64,000 nucleotides of DNA from Elusimicrobiota bacterium (GCA_003450735.1 DMEZ01000037.1:2263-66262), one strand, 5' to 3'; counted from the first letter of the stretch, positions 1 to 17,609 are shown. Translations and numbers: made by a program. The notes: generated from the letters alone by a model not told the origin.

Positions 1-662
1 AAGACCTTGGCATCAGCGACCAAGCGCTCTGGCCCTGTCTGGGCCCCAACCAGATCTGCAATCCCGGACGCTGACCGAGGCTCGATTGAGAACTCGATTC
101 CCTGCTCGAAGAGATATTCGTACAAGTCATACGCGAGGTTCTTTTCTCCCTGTTGGGTGTCCGCGTTCCATAGTGCCGCAAGCCTGCTCCGCCGAAACCA
201 TTCGCAACGATGCTTGTAGCGCTTTAGCTGAGCGAGAATTGCTCGCTGATCGTCGAGTTGTTCGTCAATGTAATCGTATAAGGGCTCAAGGAATATTGAA
301 CGAAACGATTCTACACTTGCGTCGTCCTTTGAGTCCCGGTCGTACCGGTGGCCTACTGAACCCTCGATACCTTGGTCTGTATGGGCGACACACTTCTTGA
401 TCACGAAGTATGACGCGGCAACGATTTCCATCTCCGTGCTAAAGCCGGGTGTCTGACCTTGTAGGATTTTGTCAGCCTCCGCCGCCATCTCTGGCTTCTT
501 CTTTTCAAGCTCTTCCAGTACTGAGGACAGAAGAGAATCTCCCTGAAGGAATCCCCAGTACTGCTTGAGGCCGAGGTGGAACAGCTGAAGGCCTGTCGAG
601 TTCAGTCGGCGCGTGCGCTTTTGAAGCTTGTATCGGAGACTTCGAATCAGTTCGTTATTCAT
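1..662 (-). CDS. Hypothetical protein. Start at 662; C-terminus runs off the window edge, about 220 aa visible.
   Basis: Open frame on the minus strand from ATG 662-660 (MNNELIRSLRYKLQKRTRRL...) to position 1 with no stop. AGGTG RBS 8 nt upstream overlaps the stop of the preceding ORF. Absent from the ORF track because it is edge-truncated. Confidence 0.5.
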   Translation of the reverse strand, partial: MNNELIRSLRYKLQKRTRRLNSTGLQLFHLGLKQYWGFLQGDSLLSSVLEELEKKKPEMAAEADKILQGQTPGFSTEMEIVAASYFVIKKCVAHTDQGIEGSVGHRYDRDSKDDASVESFRSIFLEPLYDYIDEQLDDQRAILAQLKRYKHRCEWFRRSRLAALWNADTQQGEKNLAYDLYEYLFEQGIEFSIEPRSASGIADLVGAQTGPERLVADAKV

Positions 663-669
663 TGGGCAC

Positions 670-906
670 CTATGACCGAATGTTGATTGTCATTCCTTTG
701 AGCGTATTATTCAGTTCTTCTATCGCCCGCCTGAATCGATGAATAGTCTTGCGACATTCGTTCATCTGATCGTCCAGCTGGATATTGCGTTTGCATCCGC
801 CGCAGATTACGATGTCTCGCAACCTAGCCTGCTTCAAGAATATGGTGTTGTAGAAGCTGCAATTGGGGCAGGGAAACTCTATTGGATGCTTGTCGAGCCG
901 AATCAC
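670..906 (-). CDS. Small zinc-ribbon-like protein (CPNC...CGGC), GTG start
   Basis: 78-aa ORF with CxxC...CxxC spacing. A 7-nt gap separates it from the downstream ORF on the same strand, consistent with an operon. No clear RBS. Confidence 0.35.
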   Translation of the reverse strand: MIRLDKHPIEFPCPNCSFYNTIFLKQARLRDIVICGGCKRNIQLDDQMNECRKTIHRFRRAIEELNNTLKGMTINIRS

Positions 907-1114
907 ATTTGCATTTTACGATACCTGAAGCCAGCAGGGGCGTCGTAGGATGGCGTATCACGCTTCGGAGTTATTTATCCAAAGGTGTAGGGGCCACGCG
1001 CAGGCGTGAACCTCTTTTTATTCCTTACGGTTGTAAATCGGAACCCCCGGCACAGTCCCAGTTATCTAAAACTACCAGAGAAAGATATTTATACGAGCTG
1101 CTCTTGGATCCTGC

Positions 1115-1348
1115 ATGGAAAGCAGAACATTCACAGCAGTGCTCCATAGGGAAGAGGACATGTATGTTGCTGAATGTCCCGAAGTCGGTACCGTGAGCCA
1201 GGGCGTGAGCATTGAAGAGGCAGTCAACAATCTTAAGGAAGCGACCGGACTCTATCTGGAGGAATTCCCATTAGAGGGGCCAGAGAAGCCTCTAATGACG
1301 ATATTTGAGGTAAAAGATGTCAAGGCCAAGAAGAGTGTCCGGGCATGA
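1115..1348 (+). CDS. hicB: HicB-family antitoxin (UPF0150, short form without DNA-binding domain)
   Basis: TAVLHREEDMYVAECPEVGTVSQGVSIEEAVNNLKEATGLYLEE matches the HicB N-terminal fold consensus. Overlaps the downstream hicA. Confidence 0.8.
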   Translation: MESRTFTAVLHREEDMYVAECPEVGTVSQGVSIEEAVNNLKEATGLYLEEFPLEGPEKPLMTIFEVKDVKAKKSVRA

Positions 1349-1547
1349 GGTCGTAAAGATTCTCTGCAATCGATTTGGATTCTATGTGAGCGGGAGATCT
1401 GGAAGCCATGTCCGACTTGCCAAGGAGACCCCAACAGGAAAAATCGGTTGCGTCGTTCCTATGCATCCTGAATTGAAGACAGGCACTCTCAAAGGAATTC
1501 TCAGGCAAGCCAAGATATCAGAGGAGCAGTATTTGGCAGAGCTTTGA
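1317..1547 (+). CDS. hicA: HicA mRNA-interferase toxin (YcfA-like)
   Basis: VSGHEVVKILCNRFGFYVSGRSGSHVRL...VPMHPELKTGTLKGILRQAKIS matches the HicA consensus (GSHxxL, PxH, GTL). 32-nt overlap with hicB. Confidence 0.8.
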   Translation: MSRPRRVSGHEVVKILCNRFGFYVSGRSGSHVRLAKETPTGKIGCVVPMHPELKTGTLKGILRQAKISEEQYLAEL

Positions 1548-1574
1548 GCTGGCTCAGGGAGCTCTCTCGTAATT

Positions 1575-15813: not shown

Positions 15814-16854
15814 ATGGGAAACATCCGACTAAGAAACAAAATCTGGTGGATCGACTACCGCCACGACGGCCGTCGCATCCGTGAGAGCGTCGGCCCCTCC
15901 AAGTCCCTTGCCCAGAAAGTTCTAGCCAAGCGCGAGACCGAGATTGCAGAGGGCAGGTTCTTTCCCCAAAAGCGCTCTTCCCTGCCCATGACCTTCAGCC
16001 AGATGGCCGAGAAGTGGTGGCAGCTTCATGGCAAGCATTTGCAGTCCAGATCAACCAGGTATCTCGTTGACAAACTGCTGTCCGTGCTCGGCGACAAGCG
16101 CCTGCACGAAATCCAAGTCGATGATTTGCAGCGGTACTACAACCTGCGCTGCGAGGACAGCAGCCCTTCGACAGCCAATAAATACCTAGCCCTCATCTCC
16201 GAGATATACAGTGCCGGCGAACGATGGAACGATTTCAATGGCAGGAATCCCACAAGGGGGGTGAGAAAGCAGCGTTGCGAGAACCCTCCTGAGCGGTTCC
16301 TAACCGAGTCCGAAGTCCGGGCCCTCCTGTCTGCCTGCCACTCTCGGATATTCCCAATCGTCGCCTGCGCGCTCATGACAGGCATGCGGAGGGGCGAAAT
16401 CCTCGGAATGCGCTGGGAGCACATAGACCTCGAGCGCAACCTAATCTATATCCTCAGATCCAAATCCGGCAAGAGGCGGGAGATTCCCCTGGCCCCCAAA
16501 CTCAAGGATCTCCTGCTATCGCTTGGGCCCTGCCTTACAGGGCCGGTCTTTAGCGTGCCCGTGATCACCCTCAGGAGGTACTTTAAAAGGGCCCTGAAGG
16601 CCTCTGGGATCGCCGTATGCCGCTTCCATGACCTCAGGCATACCTTCGCTTCCCACTTCCTCATGCGTACGGGCAACTTCCCTACCCTCCAGCGCGTCCT
16701 GGGCCACGCCTCTCCCCGGATGACTCAGCGCTACGCGCACCTGGCTCAGGACTACATGCAGAACGAGATGCTTCGCTTTGACCAGGCCCTACAGATAGGG
16801 CTGGAGCTTGATGCCGATGGTCACAAAATGGTCACAAACCAGGTTTCGGCGTGA
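15814..16854 (+). CDS. int: Tyrosine site-specific integrase (phage-type)
   Basis: C-terminal catalytic region HDLRHTFASHFLMRTGNFPTLQRVLGHASPRMTQRYAHL carries the R...HxxR...Y signature. N-terminal SAM-like domain. Confidence 0.9.
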   Translation: MGNIRLRNKIWWIDYRHDGRRIRESVGPSKSLAQKVLAKRETEIAEGRFFPQKRSSLPMTFSQMAEKWWQLHGKHLQSRSTRYLVDKLLSVLGDKRLHEIQVDDLQRYYNLRCEDSSPSTANKYLALISEIYSAGERWNDFNGRNPTRGVRKQRCENPPERFLTESEVRALLSACHSRIFPIVACALMTGMRRGEILGMRWEHIDLERNLIYILRSKSGKRREIPLAPKLKDLLLSLGPCLTGPVFSVPVITLRRYFKRALKASGIAVCRFHDLRHTFASHFLMRTGNFPTLQRVLGHASPRMTQRYAHLAQDYMQNEMLRFDQALQIGLELDADGHKMVTNQVSA

Positions 16855-16893
16855 TTTGCCCTCATCAAATTGTAGTTGTAAAATAAGGTGAAA

Positions 16894-16966
16894 GGGCCTG
16901 TAGCTCAGCTGGGAGAGCGCTTGCATGGCATGCAAGAGGTCCAGGGTTCGATTCCCTGCAGGTCCA
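16894..16966 (+). tRNA. tRNA-Ala (anticodon GGC)
   Basis: Cloverleaf folded by hand. Acceptor GGGCCTG/CAGGTCC with the G3:U70 Ala identity pair. D-arm GCTCAGCTGGGAGAGC. Anticodon stem-loop CTTGC-ATGGCAT-GCAAG. T-arm CAGGGTTCGATTCCCTG. Discriminator A. CCA not encoded. Confidence 0.85.
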
Positions 16967-17037
16967 CCCTCTCGAAAGTCCCGCCCCGCAACGGCGGGAT
17001 TTTCATTTACGCCGGCATGGTACAATGTCTTCATCCG

Positions 17038-17277
17038 ATGAGCCCGACGGTATTCCGGTACCGGAAATACAGGTTCTATTTCTTCTCCCGAGAGGAAACG
17101 CGTGTGCATGTCCACGTAACCTGCCCCGACGGAGAGGCGAAATTCTGGATCGAGCCGGGTATCTCTTTGGCGCAGAACTACGGCTTATCCCAAAGGCAAG
17201 TCAAAACGCTGATGCGAGTGGTCGAGGAGCACAAGGATGAAATCACGAGCGCGTGGCGCGAACACTTCAGCCGCTGA
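17038..17277 (+). CDS. DUF4160 domain protein
   Basis: MSPTVFRYRKYRFYFFSREETRVHVHV...EAKFWIEP. The ORF track starts at an upstream GTG 16888 that overlaps the tRNA, so a start at ATG 17038 was chosen. Confidence 0.6.
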   Translation: MSPTVFRYRKYRFYFFSREETRVHVHVTCPDGEAKFWIEPGISLAQNYGLSQRQVKTLMRVVEEHKDEITSAWREHFSR

Positions 17278-17566
17278 AGTCCAGGGCATCACCGCCCAAG
17301 GCATCTGGATCTACGTCCAAGGCAGCGAGTATTTCCTGAATCATCAGGACTACCCTTGGTTCAAAGGCGTGAGCGTCGAATCGATATTCAACATGGTTTT
17401 GCTGCACGGCCATCACCTGCATTGGCCGGATCTGGACGTCGATCTGGAGTTGGAATCCTTGAGGAGCCCAGAGAAGTATCCCTTGAAGTCCGCGGTGCTC
17501 CACGCAGCCGTGGCAGAGAAGCCCCGGGCTTACCGAAAGGGCCGCAGCCGACCAGTCCGCGCCTGA
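17237..17566 (+). CDS. DUF2442 domain protein
   Basis: GIWIYVQGSEYFLNHQDYPWFKGVSVESIFNMVLL...HWPDLDVDL. Classic DUF4160/DUF2442 gene pair. Confidence 0.6.
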   Translation: MKSRARGANTSAAEVQGITAQGIWIYVQGSEYFLNHQDYPWFKGVSVESIFNMVLLHGHHLHWPDLDVDLELESLRSPEKYPLKSAVLHAAVAEKPRAYRKGRSRPVRA

Positions 17567-17609
17567 CCACCCATCAGCCAGCCCCGGCGCCTCCACCACT
17601 TTTACGCGC

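Follow-up and report, generated by a model that had tools for sequence, protein, structure and literature searches.

The window analyzed here, a 64,000-nt stretch of DNA from an Elusimicrobiota bacterium (GCA_003450735.1 DMEZ01000037.1:2263-66262), begins with a block of low-GC foreign DNA that possesses its own tyrosine integrase and lies on the unusual, upstream side of a tRNA-Ala(GGC) gene. Most likely, the element lies upstream because its integrase is of a type that brings its own copy of the tRNA 5′ half together with a promoter. We consider it probable that an integrative element, or an array of elements, was inserted in what had been, in an Elusimicrobia genome, a single tRNA-Ala(GGC) gene, by means of an attachment site (attP) containing the tRNA 5′ half, with strand exchange in the anticodon loop. 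A lambda-style integrase with arm-type sites and an HTH_17 excisionase partner, from a family with strand exchange in the anticodon loop, would set the element upstream of the regenerated tRNA gene, and the right end would then read, in order, int, tandem arm-type sites, promoter, tRNA 5′ half from the element, anticodon loop, and tRNA 3′ half and terminator from the host (Table 1).

GC content, calculated in 1-kb intervals, was 0.48 to 0.57 over positions 1–17000 of the window and 0.61 to 0.74 beyond position 18000, with a mean of 0.517 for positions 1–16854 versus 0.69 for the host DNA at positions 18210–64000. Tetranucleotide usage was correlated between the two halves of the element (r = 0.88) more closely than between element and host (r = 0.58 to 0.62). 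GC, gene and tRNA calls are thus in agreement with the first-pass annotation, which described a low-GC integrative element with its integrase on the 5′ side of tRNA-Ala(GGC), in the orientation opposite to the usual one; the drop in GC relative to the host was borne out, but the value of 45–50% given there is slightly too low. Its statement that the excisionase and integrase genes abut an intact tRNA-Ala was also correct, the spacer between the int stop (16854) and the tRNA start (16894), two features of the same (+) strand, being 39 nt. Exact-protein look-ups placed the window at positions 2390–66389 of the 127-kb groundwater-metagenome contig k127_441249 (ENA ERZ909578). They also revealed the identical element in a JGI assembly and in Logan assemblies; several samples carry the element sequence with identical proteins, and the integrase sequence is identical to one annotated at NCBI in an Elusimicrobia metagenome-assembled genome (MAG). 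Since low-GC DNA (GC about 0.51) runs at least 2389 bp further left on the source contig, the left boundary of the element lies outside the window, as had been stated, and no part of the tRNA-Ala gene was found to be duplicated within the window.

The predicted integrase possessed all the catalytic residues of the family (R192, H272, R275, H298 and Y307), which were invariant in a 47-sequence alignment, and its N-terminus gave a weak match to Arm-DNA-bind_2, below the Pfam threshold. The small gene preceding it, the start of which is placed at 15556 by gene callers, is predicted from its HTH_17/AlpA-type domain and its position beside int to encode an excisionase-like partner, a putative recombination directionality factor; an HTH_17 gene was also observed 5′ of the integrase gene in the relatives L102, L104 and L105. 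Within the last codons of int, there are two tandem copies of ATGGTCACAAA, predicted to be the arm-type sites of the P arm. These occurred only once in the 22 kb searched (positions -2389 to 20000), and equivalent tandem repeats were located at the same place in all relatives inspected. The tRNA-Ala gene of the window, with a G3:U70 pair read from its sequence, is predicted to be an attR hybrid with a 5′ half derived from the element and a 3′ half derived from the host. Its acceptor pair 7:66 is G:C (16900 and 16959) versus A:T in L102 (4882 and 4941); thus, each 5′ half on the element side fits the 3′ half of its own host.

An exact 20-mer of the arm repeats was present in four unrelated IMG/VR contigs in attP-like settings. 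In one of them (L112, 4551–4800), the identical arm motif ATGGTCACAAAATGGTCACA occurred as two sets about 200 nt apart; in another (L114, 8911–9060), ATGGTCACAAAATGGTCACA was located about 75 nt ahead of a tRNA 3′ fragment on the same strand, an arrangement that hints at a third configuration, with int beside a displaced 3′ fragment.

The similarity search detected 5599 integrase homologues at E ≤ 1e-20, the nearest being 71% to 67% identical; a large group stood at about 50%, chiefly from Elusimicrobia. The 47-sequence alignment, run against GTDB genomes, yielded 80 related integrase loci (27% to 53% identity), in which repeats were sought within 10-kb flanks. A tRNA or tmRNA gene was located 17–220 nt past the integrase match in 53 of the 80 loci, being co-directional with int in 24 and convergent in 29. 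The convergent layout of int and tRNA is the classical picture. Among the loci with at least 35% identity, 11 of 12 were co-directional and one was convergent. The closer relatives were all co-directional, namely L102 (68% identity, tRNA-Ala(GGC)), L104 (50%, tRNA-Val), L105 (49%, tRNA-Thr) and L095 (48%, tRNA-Thr), and these clustered with the window integrase in a rough neighbour-joining tree without support values; in the same tree, orientation tracked clades, with several switches across the integrase family. Back-translated peptides, used to seek further close relatives, detected none in IMG/VR and one useful metagenome locus (L095). In L105, a truncated second integrase 3′ end with its own arm repeats and promoter (11012–11568) was situated between the complete int and tRNA-Thr, apparently left over from serial integration or replacement at a single tRNA gene.

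Distal direct repeats of the target tRNA gene were found in six of these relatives (Table 1). In the two co-directional loci, L020 and L041, the repeats ended at tRNA nt 40–43, whereas those of the four convergent loci, L018, L026, L036 and L062, began at nt 31–32. All that the two kinds of repeat have in common is the anticodon loop with the 3′ stem next to it; strand exchange is therefore assigned to the anticodon loop, and by analogy the crossover of the present element is predicted to occur there. As judged from these repeats, the co-directional type carries the tRNA 5′ half, and its attP is mirrored relative to that of the convergent type. In L020, the displaced fragment has T30 (1101), which pairs with A42, versus G30 (11113) in the copy near int; the 5′ half proximal to int is therefore the imported one. 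In the regenerated tRNA-Arg of L020, G30 faces A42 and leaves the anticodon stem mismatched there, so the imported 5′ half is imperfectly matched to that host. Both L020 and L041 possess the same tandem repeats between int and the tRNA gene and again about 130 nt inside the distal fragment, an arrangement that, to judge by position, corresponds to arm-type sites on the P and P′ arms of a lambda-like attP.

Three possibilities had been offered in the first-pass annotation. An attP carrying the tRNA 5′ part has the strongest backing, from the 5′-half repeats in L020 and L041 and from the arm repeats and promoter in the window. An att site elsewhere found no support; the repeat analysis suggested there does point to the tRNA. 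An element-borne tRNA is upheld for the 5′ half and the promoter, and is only possible for the whole tRNA, given the second complete copy described below.

A promoter has to come with any element that takes the place of a tRNA 5′ half, and one is predicted here. The sigma-70-like promoter in the spacer was the single match in positions 16600–17300, versus 0.1 expected from shuffles; its second hexamer ends 9 nt ahead of tRNA position 1, and it is predicted to be the element-borne promoter of the regenerated tRNA gene. In all six members of the integrase clade to which the window belongs, a -10-like hexamer was observed 9–13 nt upstream of the tRNA. Over all 29 co-directional loci, the hexamer was present in seven, versus 9% of shuffles, and since few of the 29 match, the promoter is claimed for the clade of the window alone. 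The window promoter is homologous to those that precede tRNA-Ala in this host lineage. Because they have to carry a promoter, elements of this type can insert at the leading gene of a tRNA operon without shutting it off; the target was indeed the first gene of a tRNA cluster in four co-directional relatives (L019, L025, L037 and L095).

The nearest related genome found, L107 (M20 peptidase 80% identical), has the gene order M42 peptidase, tRNA-Ala(GGC), response regulator and M20 peptidase at this locus, with neither an integrase nor any of the genes of the element, in accordance with the earlier view of the low-GC genes as an insertion. The M42 peptidase of L107 served to recover the contig carrying the left host flank (L109), an orthologue being present in the same three samples as the window. 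In the orientation of the window, L109 encodes GAPDH, PGK, SecG, the M42 peptidase, a zinc-ribbon protein and DUF4404, followed by a promoter and a hairpin similar to repetitive extragenic palindromic (REP) elements. L109, which is syntenic with L107, then holds a complete tRNA-Ala(GGC) gene in direct orientation that is identical to nt 1–74 of the window copy (74/74). Beyond this left copy, there are a different terminator and 5.0 kb of DNA with a GC content of 0.518 reaching to the contig end, which encodes an AbiEi/HATPase_c_4-like protein, a HEAT-repeat protein and a truncated amidase. Immediately outside nt 1 and nt 74, the two tRNA-Ala copies have different flanks, and the terminator-like hairpin after the window copy differs from the terminator after the left copy. 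Tetranucleotide usage was similar in the left and right host DNA (r = 0.90 to 0.95); that of the left low-GC DNA was closer to the element (r = 0.73 to 0.75) than to the host (r = 0.35 to 0.42). These findings indicate that what was once a single tRNA-Ala locus now contains at least 24.3 kb of foreign DNA (5.0 plus 19.2 kb) between two complete tRNA-Ala copies. Further empty sites were sought in P0243 and P0124, the contigs of which were too short or had no tRNA-Ala at that place.

The REP-like hairpin of L109 (5103–5170, minus strand), located between the promoter and the left tRNA-Ala copy, is GC-rich and about 47 nt in length. Two tandem copies of such a hairpin occur at the same place in L107 (12206–12340), and the tRNA copy on the element side has none.

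The L107 locus also contains a 1.6-kb low-GC patch (12544–13972) with AbiEii and a 216-aa partner, without an integrase. Window positions 16832–16884, from the second arm repeat to the -10 hexamer, aligned without gaps to the region 134–186 nt upstream of the L107 tRNA-Ala (40/52 identical, score 56, shuffles ≤ 24). L102, the nearest related element, matched the window over the arm repeats only and then diverged. Judging from this alignment, the L107 stretch and the AbiE patch probably remain from a related element that once occupied the same tRNA gene; it is also possible that the element captured a promoter of this host lineage.

Since the left tRNA copy is a whole gene, with no arm repeats and no integrase remnant nearby, it is unlike an attL of this integrase, and the search for an integrase or an integrase remnant beside it was negative. 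We infer that the stretch missing from the assemblies between the two contigs holds the true distal att site; the foreign block of at least 24.3 kb would then be composite, with the 3′ half and terminator of the left tRNA copy coming from a second island. About 2262 bp to the left of window position 1 (L005, 16810–16936), four independent assemblies (L005, L006, L007 and L008) stop at points no more than 127 nt apart. The overhangs are 127, 77, 30 and 0 nt, in step with the assembler k, which indicates that the contigs merge into a shared stretch, 127 nt or more in length, with another context in all the samples. A 44-nt pattern from the shared left-end stretch had no match in IMG/VR, in the JGI metagenome collection or in any fetched locus. 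Inverted ends like those of insertion sequences were compared by eye across the two contig ends, and no match was seen. That the assemblies break repeatedly at such a sequence would be consistent with a tandem of two related elements.

Several observations weigh against the explanation proposed here. L020 and L041, which carry the 5′-half repeats, belong to co-directional clades other than that of the window. A strict sigma-70 scan of the co-directional loci gave a match in 6 of 29, and the promoter is a consensus match only. The contig of the left host flank and that of the window were not joined, the four assemblies all breaking at the same point. No arm-type repeat was found in the 5 kb after the left tRNA copy on either strand, with up to two mismatches allowed. 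Likewise, no tRNA 5′ fragment was found in the window, its left extension or L109, the only other tRNA-Ala sequence being the complete gene with its own terminator.

It is possible, if rather unlikely, that a single element of at least 24.3 kb is present, whose attP holds the whole tRNA-Ala gene with its promoter, so that integration duplicates the gene, with a complete and functional copy at either end, and the left copy is attL. Under this explanation, two copies identical over exactly nt 1–74 with different flanks on both sides would be expected, and left low-GC DNA devoid of an integrase or its remnant would suit an int-distal end. The two low-GC blocks are also alike in GC (0.518 versus 0.517) and similar in tetranucleotide usage, and Logan contigs assembled at k = 31 break at both tRNA ends, as expected of a 74-nt repeat. 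However, arm-type repeats are missing within 5 kb of the left copy, whereas the arms of the relatives lie about 130 nt from the core; the mapped relatives carry the 5′ half only; and the contigs are not joined, a repeat shared with another context interrupting the assemblies. Extended to the whole family, the same idea would have an attP with a complete, promoter-equipped tRNA-Ala duplicate the host gene, within a family that switches repeatedly between 3′-half and 5′-half (or whole) attP with the anticodon stem-loop as the pivot, a proposal that we regard as tentative. A composite block is slightly preferred over an attP with the whole tRNA, for which the P′ arm sites would have to be absent or of another kind.

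Less probable still is that the element is a fixed, immobile relic with an intact int, the distal att of which was lost or overwritten by later insertions. With the distal att lost, there would be no site-specific excision, and loss by homologous recombination between the 74-nt tRNA repeats would still be possible. The lack of P′ arm sites and of a tRNA 5′ fragment in the roughly 24 kb of foreign DNA available would fit such a relic, as would the decay seen at such sites elsewhere, namely the int 3′ remnant in L105 and the arm- and promoter-like relic without int in L107. Nevertheless, the integrase has kept all its catalytic residues, the xis-like gene is intact, the same element sequence with identical proteins is present in several samples, and the missing site may lie in the gap; the element may be mobile.

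We regard as very improbable an att site upstream of the promoter, around CACAAACCAGG (16832–16842) in the end of int, as in phage Mx8 with its attP within int, which would make the promoter and the tRNA native host DNA. The 40/52 alignment to the region upstream of the L107 tRNA-Ala, where there is no integrase, agrees with such a site, and so does the limitation of the L102 match to the arm repeats. Against it, the tRNA 5′ half is repeated in L020 and L041, in which the tandem repeats are arms on both sides and not the core; a second identical, full tRNA-Ala on the syntenic left host flank would be left unexplained; and the 1.6-kb low-GC AbiE patch beside the matching segment in L107 fits a relic of an element. 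About as improbable is the last alternative, in which the two contigs would belong to different strains living side by side, each having its own island at the same tRNA gene, so that no one chromosome has both tRNA-Ala copies: the data are metagenomic assemblies, the protein of the left-flank contig is not among the NCBI MAG sources, and assemblies with smaller k break inside the tRNA, but the same pair of contexts recurs in three samples, and both k = 127 contigs pass through the 74-nt tRNA into unique flanks without branching, as is not expected of two abundant strains with alternative ways of continuing.

Upstream integration at tRNA genes is known but rare, and the present locus, interpreted as insertion by an attP with a tRNA 5′ half, is explained by a known mechanism. 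In the Islander survey, 159 of 3919 islands (about 4%) had a displaced 5′ fragment of the tRNA gene (tDNA), versus 3760 with 3′ fragments (PMC4383910). Members of this class resemble the present one in having a tyrosine integrase at a tRNA gene and an element that lies upstream and supplies the 5′ part, and a 5′ fragment is found at the far end in L020 and L041. They differ in that the far marker here is a complete tRNA copy and not a fragment, in that the integrase clade concerned (Elusimicrobia, Omnitrophota, Nitrospirota and other uncultured phyla) is uncharacterised, and in the frequency of the upstream configuration, which makes up about half of the sampled family versus about 4% of the islands. 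Integrases acting in the anticodon loop, the 'symmetric sublocation' described by Williams 2002, are a known type (as cited in PMC4383910, PMC8371274 and 10.1101/2020.11.02.365908). The anticodon stem can act as inverted core sites around a 7-nt overlap, a feature shared with the present system; in the clade of the window, the block is mirrored (5′ end to nt 40–43). With the block mirrored, transcription of the tRNA no longer starts at its original promoter.

Some pelagiphages (HTVC019P group) complement the tRNA of their host by means of a 5′ part that they carry (bioRxiv 10.1101/410191), and some Klebsiella islands lie upstream of arg2, using the D-loop (bioRxiv 10.1101/2020.11.02.365908). 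These, together with the pTN3-like archaeal integrases (PMC8371274), have in common with the present element an element-borne 5′ part or integration upstream of the tDNA. Unlike it, they comprise podoviruses, archaeal plasmids and enterobacterial islands whose integrases are of other lineages; the present element has no phage genes, and its crossover is predicted to lie in the anticodon loop. The heterobivalent integrases of lambda type share the order xis, int and att, the tandem repeats on both attP arms (seen in the relatives) and an N-terminal region similar to Int_N or arm-binding domains. They differ in that the available sequence of this element holds no P′ arm sites and that its arm binding is only predicted.

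The interest of the locus is modest and lies in three points, namely that the configuration is the norm for a whole integrase clade, that both orientations occur in one family, and that two complete tRNA genes are present at the locus. It is thus a habit, at the level of a clade, of integrases in poorly studied phyla and not the oddity of a single locus; if the family does switch repeatedly between the two tRNA halves, upstream integration would be common in several uncultured phyla rather than rare. Island finders whose search is confined to the DNA downstream of tRNA genes, or to 3′ fragments, will overlook such elements or set their bounds wrongly, and filters that discard full-length tDNA matches would reject this two-copy locus.

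Table 1. Features of the element, its integration site and the loci compared with it; positions are nt of the sequence named in the first column, or tRNA positions where so stated.
Sequence	Feature	Position	Strand	Basis
Window	Int-proximal 16.85 kb of low-GC integrative element	1–16854	.	GC, tetranucleotide usage
Window	HicB-like antitoxin	1115–1348	+	HicB_lk_antitox 0.003 (weak)
Window	HicA toxin	1317–1547	+	HicA_toxin 4.4e-16
Window	Divergent ATPase, HerA/FtsK/TraG superfamily, 432 aa	13200–14498	+	PADLOC mad8 4.6e-6, HerA 9.5e-6
Window	Excisionase-like small DNA-binding protein, HTH_17/AlpA type	15538–15768	+	PF12728 1.9e-10, PF05930 1.8e-4
Window	Tyrosine integrase, 346 aa, transcribed toward tRNA	15814–16854	+	Phage_integrase PF00589 6.7e-29, Int_N 3.7e-11
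Window	Two tandem 11-nt repeats, ATGGTCACAAA ATGGTCACAAA, predicted P-arm arm-type sites, inside last int codons	16817–16838	+	
Window	Sigma-70-like promoter, TTGCCC-17 nt-TAAAAT	16856–16884	+	Consensus match
Window	tRNA-Ala(GGC), sole tRNA of the window	16894–16968	+	ARAGORN; Rfam RF00005 65.5 bits
Window	Anticodon loop ATGGCAT, predicted 7-bp overlap (crossover) region	16925–16931	+	Inferred from relatives
Window	Intrinsic-terminator-like hairpin (16985–16998) and T run, host side of predicted junction	16985–17008	+	
Window	DUF4160 and DUF2442 pair	17038–17277 and 17237–17566	+	Pfam; GC 0.55 (DUF4160), 0.58 (DUF2442)
L107	Stretch matching the arm-to-promoter segment of the window	12206–12400	-	Alignment
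L020	Distal direct repeat, co-directional locus	tRNA positions -2 to 43		
L041	Distal direct repeat, co-directional locus	tRNA positions -19 to 40		
L018	Distal direct repeat, convergent locus	tRNA positions 32 to 76		
L026	Distal direct repeat, convergent locus	tRNA positions 31 to 74		
L036	Distal direct repeat, convergent locus	tRNA positions 31 to 78		
L062	Distal direct repeat, convergent locus	tRNA positions 31 to 76		

The products predicted for the cargo genes were nearly all ORFans, with hardly any match in Pfam, PHROGs, NCBIfam or PADLOC and marginal matches only in a PDB sequence search. Those recognized included a toxin-antitoxin pair similar to HicA and HicB, the coordinates of which were converted from L008 and L005, and a DUF2958 protein encoded in the left extension of the element. 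The 432-aa ATPase had 39 homologues at E ≤ 1e-3 among 1.84 billion cluster representatives. Many of these were 640–740 aa in length, with an extra C-terminal region, and the distant ones carried P-loop domains of the DUF87/HerA, FtsK_SpoIIIE and TraG/TrwB types. On the basis of these domains, the protein is probably a divergent DNA translocase, which may have a role in transfer or packaging. An AlphaFold2 model of it made from the single sequence was discarded (pLDDT, the predicted local distance difference test score, 38.5).

With regard to the kind of element, 10 element proteins had no match in PHROGs, a tblastn search of 50,697 phage records with the ATPase gave no match, and the element was not found in IMG/VR. 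Likewise, no Pfam match to a relaxase or a type IV secretion system was present among the element proteins, and the ATPase had no match in plasmids. Judged by its gene content, there is no support for a tailed prophage or a standard conjugation apparatus, and it is best called a cryptic integrative element.

The DUF4160 and DUF2442 genes, for which membership in the element had been left open in the first-pass annotation, are located beyond the tRNA 3′ end and are therefore outside the element under the explanation preferred here, which gives that suggestion no support. Between DUF2442 and the response-regulator gene (17610–19677), there are four genes with host-like GC. These and the DUF4160/DUF2442 pair, six genes in all, are yet absent from L107, in which the tRNA adjoins the response-regulator gene at about 0.4 kb; from its distribution, the pair may be a separate acquisition. 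Further into the host DNA, a 29-nt inverted repeat (19676–19704 and 19779–19807, 93% complementary, arms 74 nt apart) was observed between two small orfs. In the left host flank, a separate low-GC stretch (GC 0.46 to 0.54) at L109 13196–16406, also seen at L110 7950–11378, encodes Phd/ParE, BrnA/BrnT, CopG-like and UPF0150 toxin-antitoxin genes.

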